This document shows, in pieces, positions 10,194-63,228 of a stretch of DNA of 64,000 nt. The first letter of the stretch is position 1, and each line of letters opens with the position of its first letter. Both the position numbers and the translations under genes were made by a program. The stretch is from Alphaproteobacteria bacterium (lineage in GTDB: Bacteria; Pseudomonadota; Alphaproteobacteria; UBA7887), in contig OZ241745.1 in assembly GCA_965201115.1 (NCBI GenBank), forward strand, positions 2,534,340-2,598,339. Direction: 5' to 3'. Under the pieces are notes generated by a model, which was not told the DNA's origin, searched no databases, and saw nothing but the letters and a program-made list of their open reading frames with translations.

Positions 10194-11831
10194 ATGGAAC
10201 GCGAATCGATGGAGTTCGACGCCGCGATCGTCGGCGCCGGCCCGGCCGGGCTGGCGGCGGCGATTCGCCTGAAGCAGCGCGACCCCGCGCGCGCCGTGTG
10301 CGTCGTCGAGAAAGGCTCGGAAGTCGGCGCGCACATCATGTCGGGCGCGGTGTTCGAGTCGCGCGCGCTCGACGAGCTCCTGCCCGATTGGCGCGACCGC
10401 GGCGCGCCCGTCTCCGATCCGGTGACCGAGGAGCGCTTCCTGGCGCTGTCGGAGCGCGGCGGGTTCGCTGTGCCGCACGCGCTGCTGCCGCCGGCCATGC
10501 GCAACCGGGGCAACTACGTCATCAGTCTGGGCGCGCTGTGCCGATGGCTCGCCGCGCAGGCGGAAGAACTCGGCGTGGAGATTTACCCGGGTTTCGCCGC
10601 GACCGAGGTTCTTTACGATTCGGGCGGCGCGGTCGCCGGAATCGCCACCGGCGACATGGGCGTTACGAAGGCCGGGGAGCGCGGCGCGAATTACCAGCCG
10701 GGGGTGGAGCTCCGCGCGCGGATTACGCTGTTCGCCGAGGGCTGCCGCGGAAGCCTGGGCGGCGCGCTGATGACGCGCTTCGGCCTGCGCGCCGGCGTCC
10801 ATCCGCAGACCTACGGACTCGGCCTGAAGGAACTGTGGGAGCTGGCGCCGGAGCGCCACCGCCCCGGGCTGGTCATGCATACCGTGGGCTGGCCGCTCGA
10901 CCGGCGGACGTATGGCGGGTCGTTCCTCTATCATTTCGGCGAGCGGCTGGCCGCCGTGGGCTTCGTGGTGGGGCTGGATTACCGGAATCCGTGGCTCAGC
11001 CCCTACGAGGAGTTCCAGCGTTTCAAGACCCACCCGAAAATACGCGGGTTTTTCGAGGGCGGGCGGCGGATCGCCTATGGCGCGCGCGCGCTCAACGAGG
11101 GCGGCCTGCAAAGCCTGCCGAAACTCGCGTTTCCCGGCGGCGCGCTGATCGGCTGCGAGGCGGGAACACTCAACGTGCCCAAGATTAAAGGCACGCACAC
11201 GGCGATGAAATCCGGAATGCTGGCGGCGGAGGCCGCATGCGGCGCGCTGGCGGCGAACGATGGCGCGGCGATCGGGATTTCCGCCTACGAGACCGCGTTC
11301 CGCGAGTCGTGGGCGGGCGCGGAGTTGCGCCGCGCGCGCAATGTGCGGCCGGGTTTCAAATGGGGGTTATGGGCCGGCGTGTTGCATGCGGGTTTCGACC
11401 AGCTCGTGCTGCGCGGGCGCGCGCCGTGGACGCTGGCGCACGGGCGCCGCGACCGCGGCGCCACACTCCCGGCCGCCGAATGCGCGCCGATCGCGTATCC
11501 CAAACCCGACGGCGAATTGACCTTCGACCGCTTGACCAATCTCGCCTATTCCGGCGTGGCGCACGAAGAGGACCAGCCCGCGCATCTGAAAGTGGCCGAC
11601 GAGGCGGCGGCGATCGCGACGACGCTCGCCGTGTACGAAGCGCCGGAACAGCGCTATTGCCCCGCCGGGGTCTATGAGATCGTGCGCGGCGCCGACGGCG
11701 CGAACCCCCGCCTCCAAATCAACGCGCAGAACTGCATCCACTGCAAGACCTGCGACATCAAGGACCCGGCGAACAACATCCGCTGGACCCCCCCCGAAGG
11801 CGGCGGCGGCCCGAACTACCCGAATATGTAG
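10194..11831 (+). CDS. Electron transfer flavoprotein-ubiquinone oxidoreductase
   Basis: IVGAGPAGL, EKGSEVGAHIMSGA, NVPKIKGTHTAMKSG, CPAGVYE, NCIHCKTCDIKDP, GGGPNY. Confidence 0.96.
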   Translation: MERESMEFDAAIVGAGPAGLAAAIRLKQRDPARAVCVVEKGSEVGAHIMSGAVFESRALDELLPDWRDRGAPVSDPVTEERFLALSERGGFAVPHALLPPAMRNRGNYVISLGALCRWLAAQAEELGVEIYPGFAATEVLYDSGGAVAGIATGDMGVTKAGERGANYQPGVELRARITLFAEGCRGSLGGALMTRFGLRAGVHPQTYGLGLKELWELAPERHRPGLVMHTVGWPLDRRTYGGSFLYHFGERLAAVGFVVGLDYRNPWLSPYEEFQRFKTHPKIRGFFEGGRRIAYGARALNEGGLQSLPKLAFPGGALIGCEAGTLNVPKIKGTHTAMKSGMLAAEAACGALAANDGAAIGISAYETAFRESWAGAELRRARNVRPGFKWGLWAGVLHAGFDQLVLRGRAPWTLAHGRRDRGATLPAAECAPIAYPKPDGELTFDRLTNLAYSGVAHEEDQPAHLKVADEAAAIATTLAVYEAPEQRYCPAGVYEIVRGADGANPRLQINAQNCIHCKTCDIKDPANNIRWTPPEGGGGPNYPNM

Positions 11832-12030
11832 GCTCAATTGGCGAATCGTGTGTACGCGGTGTTCATTGCGGCGGTCAGGCAAGTCCTCGGCGACGCGGGT
11901 GCGGCGAGTCCGATGAGGTGGAACCGCCGCAGATATCTGTCGGGATACCTTGTCGCGATGCCGCGAAAGCCGCGCAGGAAGCCCTTCAACCGGCTGTGAC
12001 GGCTGTTGACGGTCTGAATGCGGAAGGGCG
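11831..12030 (-). mobile_element. IS1595-family transposase C-terminal remnant with one terminal inverted repeat
   Basis: Minus frame IQTVNSRHSRLKGFLRGFRGIATRY..RYL..F matches the IS1595/ISXO2-like C-terminus; the stop lies inside ggctcaattggcgaatcgtgtgtac (11831-11855), which recurs elsewhere in the window. Confidence 0.75.
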
Positions 12031-12089
12031 TCGCGCACCCGCTCGCCGGCGCTCGTGTTGAGCGCCTCGCAACGCACGCCGAGGGGGAA

Positions 12090-12272
12090 GCGCAACCCCG
12101 CCGCGGGCGGGGCCCGGGACCGCGGGCGTCCCCGCCCGCACGTCTCGACGCTACGGGCGCCGGAGAGCAGGGCGCGGCGCCCGTGCTTTCCCGCCAACGC
12201 AGTGCCGCGCGGCAACGTGCGGGCAGGATGCCCGCGGTCCCGGGCAGTCCGCGCCTTCGGCGCGGCGGCGCC
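12090..12272. repeat. Inverted REP doublet (REPIN-like)
   Basis: cccgggaccgcgggcgtcccgcccgcacgt (minus orientation) and acgtgcgggcaggatgcccgcggtcccggg (plus orientation). Confidence 0.8.
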
Positions 12273-27517: not shown

Positions 27518-27542
27518 GTACAGACGATTCGCTAATTGAGTC
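27518..27542 (-). mobile_element. Solitary IS1595-type terminal IR copy
   Basis: Reverse complement ctcaattagcgaatcgtctgtac is 21/23 identical to 11833-11855. Confidence 0.65.
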
Positions 27543-54669: not shown

Positions 54670-55611
54670 ATGCCCGACTCCATGCATCCGCAACTCGCCG
54701 CCTTGCTCGAACGGATCGCCGAAGCCGGCTACCCGGACCAAATCGCCGTTCCGGTAGAGGAAGCGCGAGACATCACGGTGGATCGCGCCGCGCGGTTTTA
54801 CGGCGATCCGCAGCCCGTGGAGCGCATCGAGCCGCTGACCGTCGGCGGCGCCGACGGGCCGCTGCAGGCGAAACTCTATGCGGTGAGATCCGCGGCGCCG
54901 CTTCCCGTTGTCGTCTATTTTCACGGCGGCGGCTGGGTGCTCGGCAATATCGACAGCCACGACAAGGGCGTGCGCGCAATGACGAACGCCGCGCAATGCA
55001 TGACGGTGTCGGTGAATTACCGCCGCGCGCCCGAACATCCCTTCCCCGCCGCGGCGGAGGACTGCTTCGCGGCGCTGCGCTGGGTGGCGGAGAACGCCGC
55101 GCGGTTCGGCGGCGACCCGGCGCGCATCGCGGTGGCCGGCGACAGCGCGGGCGGCAACCTGGCCGCGGTATGCGCGCTGACGGCGCGCGACGCCGGCGGC
55201 CCCGCGCTGGCGTTTCAGCTGCTGATCTACCCTGTCGTGGACTGCGATCTCGACGGCGGCACATACGCCACGCTCGGCGACGCCCCGGTGCTGAACCGGG
55301 CGCGCATGGCGTATTTCTGGGACCTCTACGTTCCCGACGCCGCGCGCCGCGCCGACTGGCGCTGCTCCCCGCTGCGCGCCGCGAGCCACGCGGGGCTGCC
55401 CCCCGCGCTGGTGATCGGCGCCGGCATCGACCCGCTCTACGGCGAGGGCGCCGCGTACGCCGAGGCGCTGCGCAAGGCCGGGGTGGAAGCCGAACATGCC
55501 GGTTTTCCGCGCATGACGCACGCTTTCTTCCAGGCCCCTGCCGTGCTCGACGACGCCCGCGCCGCGGTAGCCGCCGCCGGCGCCGCGCTGCGCCGCGCCT
55601 TCGCCGGCTGA
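54670..55611 (+). CDS. HSL-family alpha/beta hydrolase (esterase)
   Basis: YFHGGGW, GDSAGGNL, DPL, HAFF. Confidence 0.92.
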   Translation: MPDSMHPQLAALLERIAEAGYPDQIAVPVEEARDITVDRAARFYGDPQPVERIEPLTVGGADGPLQAKLYAVRSAAPLPVVVYFHGGGWVLGNIDSHDKGVRAMTNAAQCMTVSVNYRRAPEHPFPAAAEDCFAALRWVAENAARFGGDPARIAVAGDSAGGNLAAVCALTARDAGGPALAFQLLIYPVVDCDLDGGTYATLGDAPVLNRARMAYFWDLYVPDAARRADWRCSPLRAASHAGLPPALVIGAGIDPLYGEGAAYAEALRKAGVEAEHAGFPRMTHAFFQAPAVLDDARAAVAAAGAALRRAFAG

Positions 55612-55779
55612 GTGTCTGTACCGGAATGCTTACTCCGCCGAAGGCGGGGCTTGGGCGCCCGCCCGTCCCCGCCCGCACGTTTCTGCGCGGCGCGATGTCG
55701 GCGGGGAAGCGCGAGCGGACAAGATGCCCGCCGGTCCCTGCCGTACCGATAGCTGCCGAATTCCGGTACAGATTCTCAG
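55608..55779. mobile_element. MITE-like element with 20-bp terminal IRs enclosing a degenerate REP doublet
   Basis: ctgagtgtctgtaccggaat (55608-55627) versus the reverse complement of 55760-55779, ctgagaatctgtaccggaat: 18/20. Confidence 0.6.
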
Positions 55780-55953: not shown

Positions 55954-56976
55954 TCATCCAGCGGGTTCGCCGATGCGCATGGCGCGTGCTTGAGGCAGAA
56001 ACTCCCAATGTTGTTGCACCGCCTTCGCAATCCAATTCAGATCGAGAAAATGCACGCCGCCGCCCGGCGGTTCCGGCCGTTCCGGCGTCAGAACAGCCGA
56101 GTACAGACGGACTCCGGGGTTGTACGGTCCGGCGTCCCCGAAATTCGGAGCATGTCGCGCGTACAATTTGGCTTGCATCAAGCCTACAAGATTGCCCTCT
56201 TCATCGCTTCCGATTCCGTCCACGCCGCCATCTCCGGTACCCCCGACGTGCCGCCATATTTCGTGTGGGTGCTCCAACTGCAGGAGCGATACCACCAGGC
56301 ATTCGAACGCGTACGGAAAGAGCGTATCGACCAGGCGCCGTTTGATATCGTCGAGATCGAGCGTCCACGGGACCGGGTGGTGTTCCCCATCGACGATCGA
56401 TTCGAGAACAGCATAGGCAGTGATGTTCCTATCGACAGGGTGACGGCCGAAAACACCGTAGGTTGTGCGGCCCAGCATGGTCCGGAGCATCCATCCGGGG
56501 AGCTGCGTGAGATCGATCTGCCGATACTCGTCGATAGGCCACCCCTGCGCGACGTCGGCGATATGATGATTTTCGTCGTCGTTGTGTGCATCGAGACCTT
56601 GCGTTTCCCGCAACGTCAGGTAATCCTTGGCCCAGCCCGGCGCATTCACGATATCGTAGTCCCCGGTTATCCGGGCGACGTAAACAACGCCTTCACGCGG
56701 CCGCGGGATAACGACTATCGATCCGCACGTCACTTTCTGAACCAAGTTGCGGTTCTTTGTATGTTGTGGTGTGAACTGGGGGTTAACCGCCCGCTCATGC
56801 GCCCATTCCTCATCGTCGACCGTGAGATCGACGAGACAGTGTTGCAGGTTGTTCCGGTCGTACTCGCGCCCGAACCCGAGTAGCGGATGGCCGATAAACA
56901 CGCGCGCCGCCTGTTCGAAGATTGCGAACGCGTCGCAGCCTTGCGGCTTGGCTCGGCAGAAAAACGCGATAGGCAT
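55954..56976 (-). CDS. Mrr-like (PD-(D/E)xK) restriction endonuclease with uncharacterised N-terminal domain
   Basis: FECLV..LL...GGTGDGGVDGIG...MQAKLY; AAGGGGGAG RBS; AT-richer than the backbone. Confidence 0.7.
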   Translation of the reverse strand: MPIAFFCRAKPQGCDAFAIFEQAARVFIGHPLLGFGREYDRNNLQHCLVDLTVDDEEWAHERAVNPQFTPQHTKNRNLVQKVTCGSIVVIPRPREGVVYVARITGDYDIVNAPGWAKDYLTLRETQGLDAHNDDENHHIADVAQGWPIDEYRQIDLTQLPGWMLRTMLGRTTYGVFGRHPVDRNITAYAVLESIVDGEHHPVPWTLDLDDIKRRLVDTLFPYAFECLVVSLLQLEHPHEIWRHVGGTGDGGVDGIGSDEEGNLVGLMQAKLYARHAPNFGDAGPYNPGVRLYSAVLTPERPEPPGGGVHFLDLNWIAKAVQQHWEFLPQARAMRIGEPAG

Positions 56977-57644
56977 GGTCCCAGTCTCCCCCTTCTGGAT
57001 ACCGCCATGTCGGCGGCGCGCCGACAAGCGCGGTCCATGGCACCCAGCGAAGCCGTCGCACCGCGTCGGCACCGACGCACTATAGCAGCTCGTGCGCGCC
57101 CGCGCAACTGCCGACCGGCGGCGTTCTTGCCAGACGCTACCGTTGCCCGGTCGGCGCGCCGTGTCCGGTCCTGCGCCTCAAAAATCCGGCGCGGCGGCCC
57201 CGCTGCGCGTGCCTGCGCCGTCCGGTGCGGTCGGCGAAACGGCGGGCTGCCTTGGCCCAAGGACCGATTCGGGCGGCTGCGGAGCCTTCGTCGAGAGCGG
57301 AACGTTCGCGTCGCCGAAACCGGTTCGGGGCGACTCGTACTCGTCGGTAGCTGTGCGCCATGCGCGGGGCATGGCCTTGCGCGGCGCCGTTACAGGCAAG
57401 AGCCAGCAGGGCGCCGGCGGCCCCGGATTTGCGTTCGACGGTTCCGGGGCGCCGTTGCGGGGCATTGCGGGGATCTGCGGGGCCCCGGGGCGGGCTCGCG
57501 CGCCGGTCGGACGAAGCGCGGCAGCGCTCTCCGGCGGCGCGTTCAGCGTTGTCGCGGTCGTTCGCCCGTTCGTATTCGCGTTCGGCTTCGCAGCGTTCGC
57601 AGGCGATGCGAACGGCCCCCCGCTGGCGTCCGGCGTATTCCTTC

Positions 57645-57948
57645 TGCTCGATTCGCGAATCGTATGTACCGAAGACCGGGTCGCCTCCGGGGGCAGGGTG
57701 CTTGGGCGCCGTCGCGCCGAAGGCGCAGACTTCCTGGGTGCGCGGGCGTCTCGCCCGCACGTCTCCAACGCGCCGAAGTCTGCCACGACGGGCACGCTGC
57801 CGCGCGCCTCTCTGCCAACGCTGCGCCGCGTGCAAACGCGCGGGCGGGGACGCCCGCGCACCCAAGGAGTCAGAGCCTTCGGCGTGACGGCGTTCAATGC
57901 CGCCAAGCAAAATTGCGGCCCAAGTACAGACGATACGCGAATTAAGCG
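57645..57948. mobile_element. IS1595-type MITE (~304 bp) carrying an inverted REP doublet
   Basis: IR-like 57647-57669 and 57924-57946 in inverted orientation; flanks attccttc / atttcttc (7/8, TSD-like); internal ~56-bp inverted arms. Confidence 0.7.
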
Positions 57949-58037
57949 ATTTCTTCCAATTCTGATCGGACCGCCAACGTCGAGGGACGTTATAATACCA
58001 ATGCAACATAACGCGTGGAAATCTGGGGCAGTCCCAT

Positions 58038-58148
58038 AGTTATACCAACAGCTGTTGATGTTGACCCCTCTGTGCCCACATTTTCATGCCGGTCAAGGCC
58101 ACATTCCGCAGTTAGGACGAGTCAACATCAACAGCCGTTGGTATAACT
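58038..58148. repeat. 111-bp AT-rich hairpin (28-bp arms, 55-nt spacer)
   Basis: agttataccaac(a/g)gctgttgatgttgac arms, 27/28 identical. Confidence 0.85.
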
Positions 58149-58300
58149 CACGACCGTTCCGGTCGGTAAAATCCGCCGCCGACATACGCACCTCGATCAA
58201 TCGATTTCTACCAAACCACACACCAACCCCACCAAAATCATACTATAACCGGGCGCACTTCGGAATCGTGACAATAGCGCGGCCGTTTCCAATACCATGA

Positions 58301-59659
58301 CTATTGCGTTACTTTGCACTCGGCAAGACGTTTACATATCGTCAAGGCAACGCTTACCACGACTCTGGCATCACTTGGATCGACAGCCCGGCCTTCTTTA
58401 CAATGTCGGCCATGTTCAGACGCGTAGCCCCATAGTTTCTCAACAATAATACGGAGAGGCTCCGGAATGGGAAGGTGTGGGACGAGTCGCCCTAACGTTT
58501 GGTTGGCGCGTCCGGTCACAGATCGCGCTATCGACTCGCACGCCATCATTGAATGATGAATTGCGCCTGTTACGTCGGGATTTGGATGGCGTGATATATC
58601 GGAGATTGCCTCTCGCATTTCATTCGATGCTGTAGGATATCCGGATTCAACCAGAAATCTCAACGAGGCGTCATTGTCGTTCCGATACGTGGAGTCTGTT
58701 CGATCATGGTGGGTATCGATCCACTCGGGCTTTCGAACGATATCTTCTCGGGTACGCCGATGGAAACCGATCTTTCCTTCCTCTGGCGACGACGGGATTG
58801 GGAACTTGTTACCCGGAACGAGAGCAAAGTTCGGTACTGGAGCGTGGTGCATCCGTACTGCGGCTGTTTCAAAGCGTTGAGACGTAAATTGGTCGCAGAC
58901 AATGCCTTGACTGACTCCGGACGCGAATGCTTCACAGCCAGCAACCCTTGATTGATTTTCTGCCGCTATCGCGGATTTGTTCAATCCGTCCCCCCGATAC
59001 AGATTTTTATGAACGACGTCCATTGATACACTTTGAACCTTGCGAATCCCTTCCTCGATCATGTACTGTTCCAAGCAACCATACACTGTCGCGCGCGCAT
59101 TCCCAACGGCCTGCGACACCGCTTGGGCGAATGCATCCCTAACCTGCCGGGCAGCCATCACCCCCGCCGGTTGCTCCAAGGCCGTCGCGCGCGCACTCCC
59201 AACGGCCTGCGACACCGCTTGGGCGAATGCATCCCTAACCTGCCGGGCAGCCATCACCCCCGCCGGTTGCTCCAAGGCCGTCGCGCGCGCACTCCCAACG
59301 GCCTGCGACACCGCTTGGGCGAATGCATCCCTAACCTGCCGGGCAGCCATCACCCCCGCCGGTTGCTCCAAGGCCGTCGCGCGCGCACTCCCAACGGCCT
59401 GCGACACCGCTTGGGCGAATGCATCCCTAACCTGCCGGGCAGCCATCACCCCCGCCGGTTGCTCCAAGGCCGTCGCGCGCGCACTCCCAACGACTTGCGA
59501 CGGCGACCGGGCGGTCGCATTCTCGTCCCGCAGAGATCTCTGCGGGGCGTGGGTATCCGAACGCAGCGTCAAGGTCGGGCGCATTGCCGCTCCAACGTCC
59601 GCCGGCGCTTTTCGAGCCGTGCGCGTCATCGCGGCGGCATCGTGAAAAGTATCATGCAT
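58301..59659 (-). CDS. AbiJ-related (HEPN-like C-terminal domain) putative defence protein with N-terminal tandem repeats
   Basis: C-terminal EAISDISRHPNPDVTGAI...TLG...EKLWGYASEHGRHCKEG pattern; GGAGG RBS before ATG 59659. Confidence 0.65.
   Translation of the reverse strand: MHDTFHDAAAMTRTARKAPADVGAAMRPTLTLRSDTHAPQRSLRDENATARSPSQVVGSARATALEQPAGVMAARQVRDAFAQAVSQAVGSARATALEQPAGVMAARQVRDAFAQAVSQAVGSARATALEQPAGVMAARQVRDAFAQAVSQAVGSARATALEQPAGVMAARQVRDAFAQAVSQAVGNARATVYGCLEQYMIEEGIRKVQSVSMDVVHKNLYRGDGLNKSAIAAENQSRVAGCEAFASGVSQGIVCDQFTSQRFETAAVRMHHAPVPNFALVPGNKFPIPSSPEEGKIGFHRRTREDIVRKPEWIDTHHDRTDSTYRNDNDASLRFLVESGYPTASNEMREAISDISRHPNPDVTGAIHHSMMACESIARSVTGRANQTLGRLVPHLPIPEPLRIIVEKLWGYASEHGRHCKEGRAVDPSDARVVVSVALTICKRLAECKVTQ
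59101..59500. repeat. Four perfect 96-bp in-frame tandem repeats plus partial copy
   Basis: tcccaacg recurs at 59101, 59197, 59293, 59389, 59485; encodes QAVSQAVGSARATALEQPAGVMAARQVRDAFA. Confidence 0.95.
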
Positions 59660-59764: not shown

Positions 59765-62700
59765 CTACAGGCCACGCGCTCGCACGTCAAGCATGTGCTT
59801 ACCGGTATTCTCGATAACAACACACGTGTCCGTTTCCAACATTAAAACAGCGGTTACACGACGGGCAAGTTCGGAAAAATATCCCAATTCTCGAAAATTT
59901 AACGGGCGGCGCAGGACTATATCCGCTCGATAGGACAACCACTTCTTGAGCACTTGGTAGCCGCCGAGCCGGTAGCGCCAGACGGCTGCCGGCACGTTGC
60001 GCCACATGGCGCGGGCGTTGATATACACGTCGAAGGTCGTGGCGCCAAGGGTGGGTGCGGCGGCGCGTTCGGCGGGGGTACGGGGGCGTTCGATGGCGCG
60101 GCCCTGGCCGGGCATGACGGCGCCGCCGGCGCCGAAATGGCCCCAGCCAGCGGTGACGGCGAAATCGTCGCCGGTCATGTTGCGGCCGTCGATGGTGGCG
60201 GGGACGGCGATGGCGGCGAGTTCGGGGCGTAGCGCGCCTTGGGTGACGCCGGATACGGGCGCATCGGGGTCGAGCAGACGCGCCAGTTCGCGGCCGCGCG
60301 CGGCCGAATCGGCGAGTGCGGCGGGCACGCCGTCGCTGGCGCCGCCGGGCCAGCCGGGGAGCGGGATGCGGGGCCACTCGGCGCGAAGCGCTCCGGCGTT
60401 GGTTTCGCGATACGCTTGGTCGTGCAGTGTGGCCAAGGCGTGGTGGAAGAGGTCCGTTACTTCCAGACCGAGACGGTCAAGGTAGCGCGACGCGGCTTTC
60501 GACAGGTTGGGGCGGTATTCGGATGTCGCGTGGTCGTCGCGAAGAAAGCATGGAAACCACGATGCGCCGCGTTCGATCATGTGTCCGGCGGCAAGATGCC
60601 GCGCGAAGGAAGCCTGCGGCTCGTCGGCGCCTTTTCGAACATGTTGCGCGCTACAAAGCCATAGGTTCCGATCGGATATATGCGGCTTGTAGTCGGCGCG
60701 TTTTTCGTCCAGCAGTTTGGTGTCCGGATCCCAATACAGCCAGCGGTTGTCGAACGGCCGGTAGGCATGGCGGACGAAGCCGTCATCGACGGGGCCGCCG
60801 CGCGCAAGCAGCGCATCGCGCACGGCGCGCGCGTCGAATCTCGCTGTCGTCTTCATGACCGCGGGATAGCGCCGGGCTATTTCTTCATGGCTCAGGGCGG
60901 GGTCGAAATAGTTGCCGACCCGCGCCTTCAGACGGTCGAGATCGATATCGACGAGAAAGGCGTCACGGCTCGTTTTGACGCCGGGAAACGATACCGGGAA
61001 CAGCTCGGGCAACGACGGCCAATCGAACCAGCCGTCGCTCACGGCGGTCGGGGCGAACGGCAGGCCGAGCCGCAGCGACGGGCCGATGTCGTCGTAAAGC
61101 GCGCGCGGCTCGGCTTCGGCGGTCTCAAGCAGCGCCGCGCGCTTCCGCTCGCCCCACAAGTGGCGGAAGCCTACCGTTTCGGCGGGCGCGTGGCCGGCCT
61201 TGCGCACGAGCGTCGCCACGGCCGTCCCGACCTGGATGCCCACCGGTTCGCCCTCGGTCGAAAATACGCTCGGATCGGGGGAGCCGTCGGGCGAGACCTT
61301 GCCGGTCTTGTACTTGTCCCCGTTCAGGCAGTCGATGCGGATGGCGTCGAACGCCTCCAGGTAGCGCTCGCGCATGCCCGTGAACGACAGGCCGTCGAGC
61401 CATGAGTAGTTCGAGATGAAGCACACGACGCCGCGGCCCGTCTTCTCCACGATGCGACGCTCCGCCATGCGGAAAAAACGCACGTAAAGGTCGTTCAACC
61501 CCTGCCCTTCGGGCTTGCGCACGCGCTTCGCCGCGCGGTAGGCGTCGGCAAGCGCGCTTTCCTCGCCCACAGCCATGCCCGCGAAGCCGTTGTAGGGCGG
61601 GTTGCCCAGGATAACGAGTATCGGCGCATCGAGTTTCACGCGCTCGGCGCGGCCGCGCTCCTCCTCCAGCTCCGGGAACGGCAGCGGCGACTTGTCTTCC
61701 TCGGGCTCCCAGCCGGTGAGCGCATTGGTGAGGATGATTTGCGCGCGTTCGTCGCCGTTTTCCGCCAGCGGCGCGTCCAATGCCCGCAACGCCAGCCCCA
61801 CTTGCAGATGCGCTACCACGAACGGCGCAGGCATGATCTCGAAACCGAACACGCGCGTGAGCGCCGCCGCCTTCACATGCGCGCCCGCCAATGCGCCAAG
61901 GTTGCGCTCCTTCAGATTCGCCGCGATGCGCCGCAGGACCTCCGCCAGATAGGCGCCCGTGCCGCAGCACGGGTCCAGCACATAGACGTTCTCCGCCGCC
62001 AACCCCTCGGCAATGCCCAAATCGTCCTTCAATGCGCGATCCACACGCGCCACCATGTAGCGCACCACTTCCGACGGCGTGTACCAAACCCCCAACTGCT
62101 TGCGCAGCGCGGGGTCGAAAGCCTCAAGAAACGGTTCGTAGAAATACGGAACCGCCTCGCCCTCCGAAAAGCGCGCGAAAAACGCCGCCCGATCCACGCG
62201 ATCGAGCGCGGCCGCCGTCCAATCCATGACCTCCACCAAACCGAGAGGACGCACGCGACCGGGGTCCGAAAGCTGCTGGAACAGCGCCCGCAGCACCGGG
62301 GCGCGCAGATGCCACACGGCGGTGCGCCAGTCGAACGCGCCCGCGGGGGGCGGCGTCTGCCGCGCCCACAAAACCCACGCGGAGAACACGCCGTAGAACA
62401 GCGTCTGCACAAGCGTCGAGCGGAAAAAGCGTGCGCCCGCCGCGCCCTCGAACCGCGCCCCCAGCGCCTCCTCCAGCGCTTCGCGGACGGCGTCGAGCGC
62501 CGGCGCATCATCGGCAGACTCGACGCGCGCAAGCCCGTCGCGGGCGTAGGAAGCAAGCAGCCGGGCGAGGTCCTTCGGCTCCGCCACCGCGGCGCGGTGC
62601 GACAGCGCGCGGGAAAGATACTCGCCGAGCGCCGCGCCGGTTTCGCGGGCAAACGCGCGGGGCTTCTCGAGGCGCCGCGCGAAATCCGCGGCGCTTGCGG

Positions 62701-63145
62701 CGAGGCGCAAGGTTTCCAGTTTCGCGGGGCGTCCGTCCGGACCGGCGCCGACGAGCACGAAATCCCGCATGTTGGTGACGAGCACAAGCCGGTAACGGTC
62801 CCGATAGCGGCTGACCTGCGCGCTGTCCGCCGTAATCCAGGCGTCGTCCTCGGGCGGCTTGACCTCGACGACGCCGCGTTCGGGCGCCTGCGCTTCGCGC
62901 GGGCGGCCGCGGCGCAGCTGGGCGGCGGCGAAGAAGCCGAAATCGGGGTGGCCCGCGCCGTGGTCGGCCAGTTCGCCGATGCAGACGACCCTGGGCTTGA
63001 GCGTGGCGCCGGCGGCGTTGAGCAGGCGTTCGAGCGGGCCGTAGAGGGAGCGCTCGCCGGTAGCGGCGCCCGAGGCGCGCGCCTGCCGGAGCTCGGCGAA
63101 GTAGCGCTCGGCGGCGGCAATGGATTGCGCGTTCGTTCCGGTCAT
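59765..63145 (-). CDS. Fused restriction-modification enzyme (N6-adenine MTase, type IIG/ISP-like, C-terminal specificity domain)
   Basis: N-terminal HPDFG..VVEVK nuclease motif; YFYEPFL, GVWYTP, VLDPCCGTGAYL (motif I), GNPPY (motif IV), YRPFDNRWLY, W.YRLGGYQVLKKWLSYR. Confidence 0.9.
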   Translation of the reverse strand: MTGTNAQSIAAAERYFAELRQARASGAATGERSLYGPLERLLNAAGATLKPRVVCIGELADHGAGHPDFGFFAAAQLRRGRPREAQAPERGVVEVKPPEDDAWITADSAQVSRYRDRYRLVLVTNMRDFVLVGAGPDGRPAKLETLRLAASAADFARRLEKPRAFARETGAALGEYLSRALSHRAAVAEPKDLARLLASYARDGLARVESADDAPALDAVREALEEALGARFEGAAGARFFRSTLVQTLFYGVFSAWVLWARQTPPPAGAFDWRTAVWHLRAPVLRALFQQLSDPGRVRPLGLVEVMDWTAAALDRVDRAAFFARFSEGEAVPYFYEPFLEAFDPALRKQLGVWYTPSEVVRYMVARVDRALKDDLGIAEGLAAENVYVLDPCCGTGAYLAEVLRRIAANLKERNLGALAGAHVKAAALTRVFGFEIMPAPFVVAHLQVGLALRALDAPLAENGDERAQIILTNALTGWEPEEDKSPLPFPELEEERGRAERVKLDAPILVILGNPPYNGFAGMAVGEESALADAYRAAKRVRKPEGQGLNDLYVRFFRMAERRIVEKTGRGVVCFISNYSWLDGLSFTGMRERYLEAFDAIRIDCLNGDKYKTGKVSPDGSPDPSVFSTEGEPVGIQVGTAVATLVRKAGHAPAETVGFRHLWGERKRAALLETAEAEPRALYDDIGPSLRLGLPFAPTAVSDGWFDWPSLPELFPVSFPGVKTSRDAFLVDIDLDRLKARVGNYFDPALSHEEIARRYPAVMKTTARFDARAVRDALLARGGPVDDGFVRHAYRPFDNRWLYWDPDTKLLDEKRADYKPHISDRNLWLCSAQHVRKGADEPQASFARHLAAGHMIERGASWFPCFLRDDHATSEYRPNLSKAASRYLDRLGLEVTDLFHHALATLHDQAYRETNAGALRAEWPRIPLPGWPGGASDGVPAALADSAARGRELARLLDPDAPVSGVTQGALRPELAAIAVPATIDGRNMTGDDFAVTAGWGHFGAGGAVMPGQGRAIERPRTPAERAAAPTLGATTFDVYINARAMWRNVPAAVWRYRLGGYQVLKKWLSYRADIVLRRPLNFRELGYFSELARRVTAVLMLETDTCVVIENTGKHMLDVRARGL

Positions 63146-63228
63146 GGGCGCCTTATCGCGGAAAGCGCGGCGGCGCGCAAGGGGCGGCATTGTGCTCGCC
63201 TCCACGCGCGGCGGCGTGGGGGGCGCCG

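Follow-up and report, generated by a model that had tools for sequence, protein, structure and literature searches.

A decayed MITE family that apparently carries a REP doublet between IS1595-type ends in an alphaproteobacterial genome

A 304-bp non-coding stretch (positions 57645-57948) in the closed, 3.67-Mb genome (70% G+C) of a sponge-associated alphaproteobacterium is the relic of a mobile element that belongs to an old, decaying, lineage-specific family of chimeric MITEs. We consider it probable that this element is a decayed MITE with IS1595-type termini and a REP doublet as its interior, one of a family that goes back to a single origin and was copied by a DDE transposase. Hereinafter, the window denotes the entire stretch of DNA analyzed around the element, 64,000 nucleotides in length.

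Results

Anatomy of the element

The 23-nt motif GTACAGACGATTCGCTAATTGAG, taken from position 27518, matches the window at 57647-57669 (minus strand) and 57924-57946 (plus strand) with three mismatches each (20/23), and the addition of two terminal bases to the motif matches yields the 304-bp span. The motif further matches at 11833, with 2 mismatches, and without any at 27518; 100 shuffles yielded no match. These inward-facing copies, which the initial annotation had described as bounding about 304 bp, are all located as reported, and the flanking attccttc and atttcttc, agreeing at seven of eight positions, are likewise confirmed. In an inverted-repeat search, the two ends were recovered as 24-nt inverted arms with 83% complementarity, and the agreement of both termini with the IS terminus reaches the last bases. 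The interior contains another pair of inverted arms, 57702-57750 and 57849-57897, 49 nt each and 86% complementary; the inverted REP doublet recognized in the initial annotation is therefore real, and only the arm length of about 56 bp given there was slightly generous. The two REP units are convergent and 70 nt apart, which is the modal spacing in this genome. The element is predicted, as single-stranded DNA, to form a single hairpin that is almost uninterrupted (-111.6 kcal/mol, z = -7.7). The features of the element, from left to right, are as follows.

57637-57644, no strand: left target-site duplication attccttc, 7/8 identical to the right copy
57645-57669, plus strand: left terminal inverted repeat TGCTCGATTCGCGAATCGTATGTAC of the IS1595 type, corresponding to the IS terminus GGCTCAATTAGCGAATCGTATGTAC
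57670-57702, plus strand: linker on the left, an E variant of the D type, conserved among the shell-bearing copies only, with a BLAST coverage of about 15-20 HSPs compared to 300-500 for the core
57703-57764, plus strand: REP unit A, left arm of the inverted repeat (nhmmer match 57711-57764, plus strand, E=1e-14)
57765-57833, no strand: spacer of the REP doublet, about 70 nt long, as is modal for convergent doublets
57834-57892, minus strand: REP unit B, inverted relative to unit A, right arm of the inverted repeat (nhmmer match 57834-57887, minus strand, E=9e-10)
57893-57923, plus strand: right linker of the C type, ...GCCGCCAAGCAAAATTGCGGCCCAA
57924-57948, minus strand: right terminal inverted repeat GTACAGACGATACGCGAATTAAGCG
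57949-57956, no strand: right target-site duplication atttcttc, 7/8 identical to the left copy

REP unit A includes two stem-loops, GCGCC-GAA-GGCGC and GTGCGCGGGCG-TCT-CGCCCGCAC. We refer to the terminal inverted repeats (IRs) with their linkers as the shell and to the REP doublet as the core.

No coding capacity was detected in the element: the overlapping open reading frames showed neither a Pfam hit nor codon periodicity, and the indels that distinguish the element from its paralog (see below) are not multiples of three. On the same two grounds, the open reading frames 56887-57945 (plus strand) and 57137-58009 (minus strand) were rejected as genes. The sole Rfam match, to a plant miRNA precursor, scored 44 bits against a gathering score of 268 and was dismissed as a meaningless match to a long hairpin.

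The resident IS1595-family insertion sequence

The genome harbors a 1028-bp insertion sequence with the ends GGCTCAATTAGCGAATCGTATGTAC...GTACATACGATTCGCTAATTGAGCC (end sequences GGCTCAATTAGCG.../...CGCTAATTGAGCC), the 23-nt motif being the subterminal part of these ends. This resident IS is found at 22 loci across the genome, comprising 12 full-length copies, which are 95-100% identical to each other, and fragments. Its 330-aa product scores 172 bits against the NCBIfam model NF033547 for the IS1595 transposase (cut-off 75), matches PF12762 and contains an IS1/IS1595 zinc-finger domain; its score against NF050000 is 34.6 bits. Among annotated sequences of the plasmid collection, ISOar1 comes closest, with 59% identity. 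Perfect 8-bp, AT-rich target duplications flank 8 of the 12 full copies, in agreement with the duplication length given for the IS1595 family in the initial annotation.

Two further loci in the window carry ends of this kind.

11831-12083, plus strand: truncated IS copy (IS positions 1-252), with a REP doublet at 12097-12265, 14 nt on
27518-27542, plus strand: solo D-type shell end (linker and IR) with no REP on the inner side

In the initial annotation, REP doublets inside IS-derived ends were counted three times in the window, which is too many: a single IS end is present at 11.8 kb, and the element at 55.6 kb is bounded by CTGAGTGTCTGTACCGRAAT, a 20-nt repeat different from the IS1595 end. 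The 11.8-kb copy is also the sole one among about nine truncated IS copies that adjoins a REP, and the idea that REPINs commonly insert into IS copies was rejected for this reason.

The 55.6-kb element was likewise discarded as a candidate IS1595 derivative because it belongs to a separate, 172-bp family that lacks target duplications. This second family of IR-bounded elements, represented in the window at 55608-55779, consists of elements of about 172 bp that are delimited by CTGAGTGTCTGTACCGRAAT and its complement; there are 128 matches to the repeat genome-wide and 23 clean pairs, each with one REP unit at a fixed offset. No target duplications were found in the pairs, and the family may represent an extended REPIN type rather than a MITE.

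Shell ends across the genome

We scanned the whole genome with the motif, allowing up to six mismatches and using the reversed genome as the control. The scan gave 129 matches, 35 of which are IS ends and 94 are not, compared to none in the reversed genome; a search with profiles of the two kinds of shell end again recovered 94 non-IS ends, 52 of the C type and 42 of the D/E type. A shell end consists of the end repeat and a conserved linker of 31-33 nt, and 84 of the 94 ends possess both parts. The C-type linker ends in ...GGCGCCCAAAGCCGCCGAGCGAAAAAYGCGGCCCAT and the D-type linker in ...GGCGCCCRGGCATCCCGCCCCCGAGGCGCCGCGG, each followed by GTAC; the left end of the 304-bp element carries the E variant. 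The linkers occur only together with the IRs, and neither the C-type nor the D-type linker was found in the resident IS, so the shell ends are not scars of that IS. In each of the eight two-ended copies, a C-type end is combined with an end of the D/E type, and an alignment of two-ended copies shows a uniform architecture.

REP units lie predominantly on the inner side of the shell ends. Within 150 nt of the 94 non-IS ends, a REP is present on the inner side in 50 cases and on the outer side in 6; within 60 nt, the respective counts are 36 and 1, and most of these 36 close REPs are located 35-44 nt from the IR, with one orientation prevailing over the other 31 to 5. REPs accumulate in intergenic regions, which makes the outer flanks of these very loci the fair control. 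A lack of REPs in other IR-bounded elements, named in the initial annotation as grounds for refutation, is not what we observe.

The core and the shell differ sharply in abundance. When the 304-bp element is compared to the genome with BLAST, about 13-20 HSPs cover the IRs and linkers, compared to 300-500 over 57705-57890, and the edges of the REP-doublet core are sharp and shared with hundreds of shell-less copies. This step in coverage indicates that the core is an ordinary member of the free-REP-doublet population and that the shell is a low-copy wrapper.

As a separate observation, 4 of the 22 resident IS loci (C1:1085934, 1535151-1536178, 1507947 and 128394-128732) have a MITE shell end no more than about 300 nt away, whereas about 0.4 would be expected by chance; at C1:1085934, an IS end adjoins a truncated MITE IR. 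These positions suggest that the active, resident IS favors insertion at, or close to, ends like its own.

The REP family and its RAYT-like gene

An iterated nhmmer profile seeded from unit A of the 304-bp element identified about 953 REP units in the genome (consensus TGTCGCGCCGAAGGCGCGGACTTCCCGGGTGCGCGGGCGTCCCGCCCGCACGTTTC), including 176 convergent neighbor pairs with a median gap of 70 nt, along with tandem arrays; extragenic location of the units was checked at the locus of the 304-bp element. The genome encodes a single PF01797 (Y1_Tnp) protein, at C1:558862-559095 (minus strand), that scores above the cut-off for this family (40.9 bits); its best NCBIfam model is REP_Tyr_transpos, at 74.2 bits just under the cut-off of 80. 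This RAYT-like gene lies between long alternating REP arrays of about 9 and about 10 units (C1:558075-560419), a REPtron-like arrangement of unusually large size. Congener G004 has 54 REP hairpins and 0 copies of the IS-end IR motif, and the presence of the hairpin in a congener without this motif shows that the REP family is independent of the IS.

That the entire element folds as one long hairpin, and that the second, 172-bp family of IR-bounded elements also encloses a REP unit, could mean that the doublet is the MITE's own palindromic interior and that the REP family of the genome descends from the MITE. We regard this derivation as highly improbable, considering that only 41 of the approximately 953 REP units adjoin shell ends, that the core has sharp boundaries common to hundreds of copies without a shell, that REP arrays, not shells, lie on either side of the sole RAYT-like gene, and that the hairpins of G004 occur without the IR motif.

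A paralogous copy of the locus

The element is part of a larger duplication.

55966-57987, no strand: duplicated segment, about 85% identical to C1:423034-424876

The segment encompasses a gene with weak similarity to Mrr_cat (18.7 bits, below the cut-off), a 670-bp non-coding upstream region and the MITE; homology stops about 38 nt past the MITE. Because the MITE is present in both copies of the segment, its insertion is older than the segment duplication. The paralogous element is flanked by attccttc and attcctcc; as the right copies at the two loci differ from attccttc at different positions, the ancestral duplication of the 304-bp element was probably a perfect 8-bp repeat.

The paralog is also bounded by IRs and is only 131-135 bp long, with the core missing. 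It nevertheless retains REP remnants at both ends: one side has some 15 nt from the outer stem of the REP, GCCTTCGGCGCGAC, and the opposite side has TTGGGCGCC. The sequences TTGGGCGCC and GCCTTCGGCGCGACGG, one at either side, are the outer stem of the REP units. The paralog was therefore rejected as an example of an empty MITE. We interpret it as the product of a central deletion of the palindrome. Long inverted repeats are unstable (literature cited in PMC3733652, references 45-47), and a central deletion agrees with this instability.

Several other features were observed near the element. The AT-rich DNA just to the right of the MITE contains an inverted repeat (58038-58148) with 33-nt arms that are 91% complementary and have about 10 arm-like copies in the genome; a 19-nt direct repeat (57941-57959 and 58196-58214, 84%) brackets this stretch. 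Farther to the right, the region 58300-59100 has a low G+C content of about 50%, and a 1146-aa open reading frame at 59765-63205 contains a Type ISP C-terminal specificity domain and N6 methylase domains, which together suggest a foreign defense island next to the MITE.

Probable common descent of core and shell

To compare the cores, we aligned 142 convergent doublets pairwise in both orientations; a multiple alignment of all doublets was dropped because near-palindromic sequences were mis-oriented. The eight IR-flanked cores resemble each other more closely (mean likeness 0.805) than they resemble free doublets (0.740) or than free doublets resemble one another (0.742), with a permutation p-value of 0.0002. 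For the core of the 304-bp element, the five nearest of the 141 other doublets are all IR-flanked, and the nearest neighbor is another IR-flanked core for six of the eight such cores, compared to about 5% expected by chance. The remaining cores, at 2118607 and 2835450, are nearer to free doublets than to other shell-borne cores, which may reflect core replacement. The constant junctions, together with the shared descent of core and shell, point to a single chimera copied as a unit, and this unit is bounded by IS-type ends.

The initial annotation had left open whether REPINs target IS remnants or hitch-hike on mobilized MITEs. Under the first of these scenarios, REP doublets were repeatedly inserted by RAYT, in a site-specific manner, into small IS1595-type MITEs that already existed or into IS remnants, so that the nestings are independent. 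An IR-bounded copy without a core (the 131-135-bp paralog at C1:424.7k), a REP doublet 14 nt beyond the truncated IS at 11831-12083 and the two shell-borne cores that are nearest to free doublets could all be cited for such targeting. However, the paralog, with its outer REP stem remnants, derives from a central deletion and is no empty shell; the IR-to-REP distance, the orientation and the linkers are constant among the copies; shell-borne cores are each other's nearest neighbors far above the chance level; and truncated IS copies other than the one at 11.8 kb are not adjoined by REPs. Targeting by RAYT therefore appears unlikely, whereas hitch-hiking, the second possibility named in the annotation, is favored by the constant junctions, the conserved linkers and the co-clustering of the cores.

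Target duplications and the mode of copying

Several two-ended copies are flanked by short direct repeats of the length characteristic of the resident IS.

304-bp element: attccttc and atttcttc, 7/8
Copy 1244001: gaaacatg and gcaacatg, 7/8
Copy 2118541: atcgtccg and atcgttta, 5/8, with the first five bases matching
Copy 2923407: ambiguous, within an A-run
Three further copies of the eight that are two-ended: no recognizable target duplication

A match of 7/8 or better is expected by chance at a rate of about 4e-4 per pair. In this genome of 70% G+C, the target sites of the MITE are AT-rich, like those of the IS.

These data bear on the question whether a DDE transposase was involved at all. 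Alternatively, REP-rich intergenic regions could have generated the copies among themselves through recombination, gene conversion or segmental duplication, with the IRs being solo IS scars that lie next to REPs by chance, a scenario with which several observations are compatible: the 304-bp locus and C1:424.7k constitute a segmental duplication, solo ends greatly outnumber pairs (78 to 8 genome-wide) and have breakpoints that cluster at the boundaries of REPs and REP doublets, and three two-ended copies lack target duplications. Nevertheless, apart from the one paralog, the flanks of the shell copies are unrelated, with the coverage dropping to 2 beyond the IRs; the duplications of 7/8, 7/8 and 5/8 occupy AT-rich, IS-like sites; and the absence of the linkers from the resident IS is at odds with the ends being its scars. 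We accordingly view an origin by these other routes as improbable and prefer copying of the chimera by a DDE transposase.

Age and decay of the family

Members of the family are only about 72-82% alike, compared to the 95-100% identity of the resident IS copies, which argues against recent movement of the shell family. The consensus IR of the MITE, GGCTCAATTCGCGAATCGTCCGTAC, differs from the IR of the IS at 3 of 25 positions, and the likeness between the shell and the resident IS ends with the IR; given these two differences, the resident IS may not be the enzyme source that mobilized the family.

The excess of the 78 solo ends over the 8 two-ended copies is unusual for a MITE family. Their inner breakpoints, at the boundaries of REP units and doublets, are what deletion or recombination between a REP of the chimera and a neighboring free REP would produce; action of RAYT at the hairpins is a candidate alternative cause of this clustering. 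A further elaboration treats the chimera as a substrate of two transposases, with a DDE enzyme of the IS1595 type acting at the termini and the HUH/Y1 enzyme RAYT at the REP hairpins, such that RAYT or hairpin processing splits the MITEs, yielding 78 solo ends and 8 pairs, and DDE transposition gives one lineage of REP doublets a RAYT-independent means of spread. This proposal strikes us as improbable; if it were true, that lineage could colonize new sites in the manner of an IS and, in principle, new replicons.

Empty sites, the search for which had been suggested as a check, were not found among 30 relatives, GTDB representatives, JGI metagenomes and three public samples. Specifically, in the 30 related genomes the locus is not conserved and only the REP hairpin matches; the IR motif was not found in five congeners, GTDB species representatives or JGI metagenome contigs; the element is unchanged in contigs of three public samples; and no clean empty site was found in contigs of related strains.

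In the sponge metagenomes X6 and X9, contigs about 94% identical to the left flank (window positions 57500-57670) carry the left IR at the same site and, beyond GTAC, continue into a different, D-type-like linker, CACGGCGCCTTGAGGGCAG... Thus, the interior at this site appears to differ in a related strain.

Discussion

The anatomy, the family, the enrichment of REPs on the inner side, the co-clustering of the cores and the target duplications are direct observations; the enzyme that moved the element, the sequence of events and the causes of the decay are inferred from them. The history that we favor would have begun with the enclosure, once, of a REP doublet between IS1595-type ends, giving the family architecture IR - D/E linker - REP> - 70-nt spacer - <REP - C linker - IR. 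The chimera would next have been multiplied in one piece by an IS1595-family transposase that cut at the IRs and inserted the copies at AT-rich targets of 8 bp, the REP doublet being carried along passively. The 304-bp copy would have entered attccttc before the segment with the Mrr-like gene was duplicated; subsequently, long palindromes would have lost their centers by deletion, as in the paralog, and REP-to-REP deletion or recombination would have stripped one end from most of the copies.

A REP doublet within IS1595-type ends amounts to a natural REPIN/MITE hybrid, shows that REPs are able, on occasion, to do without their RAYT, and offers a test bed for possible interference between the two enzymes. 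The RAYT-independent dispersal route proposed in the initial annotation holds insofar as shell and core were copied together; it is a minor one, and the DDE route has contributed little to the spread of REPs, given that merely 41 of the 953 units (about 4%) adjoin a shell end. Because of this small share and because the family is old and decaying, we see the chimera as an instructive curiosity, not as a new principle or a major route of REP dispersal.

In the literature, we encountered three kinds of precedents, namely, IS that insert into REPs, MITEs that contain tandem repeats, and the contrast between REPINs and MITEs; within the limited coverage of the full-text literature on REPIN/RAYT and small repeats, no case was found of IS-type ends that surround a REP doublet and spread together with it. 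Bertels and Rainey (PMC3116915) and a later study (10.1101/2021.07.10.451892) keep REPINs and MITEs apart as two classes, and neither paper describes a MITE with a REPIN inside it; in the latter, REPINs are characterized as slow, vertically inherited and RAYT-dependent, and MITEs as fast, short-lived parasites of IS.

Among known systems, the family resembles the IS-derived bacterial MITEs, such as Correia/NEMIS, RUP, Nezha and MITEAba12, in being small and non-coding, in carrying the IRs of a co-resident IS family, and in having a target duplication of the length typical of that family, multiple copies and a long hairpin. It differs from them in that the interior is a REP doublet instead of IS-derived or anonymous sequence, most copies are one-ended, and the subterminal sequence is unlike that of the resident IS. 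IS1397, IS621 and ISPpu9/10, which target REPs (Tobes and Pareja 2006, as cited in PMC3184786 and PMC12288879), are likewise transposase-driven elements physically linked with REPs; so far as these citing papers convey, such elements insert into a REP, splitting or flanking it, whereas here an intact doublet resides between IS-type ends and is copied along with them. MITEs that enclose other repeats include the minisatellite MITE of Porphyromonas gingivalis (PMC4596501) and DTC84 of Donax trunculus (PMC3879986). These share with the present family a MITE shell around another class of repeats; the interior in both consists of tandem arrays and not, as here, of a second mobile family associated with a transposase. 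Finally, the core has the hallmarks of REPIN-RAYT systems (PMC3116915; 10.1101/2021.07.10.451892), in that two inverted REPs and their spacer fold into a hairpin, diverged copies number in the hundreds, and REPs flank the one RAYT-like Y1 transposase gene, but the chimera also possesses the DDE-type terminal repeats and target duplication that RAYT and IS200-type elements both lack.
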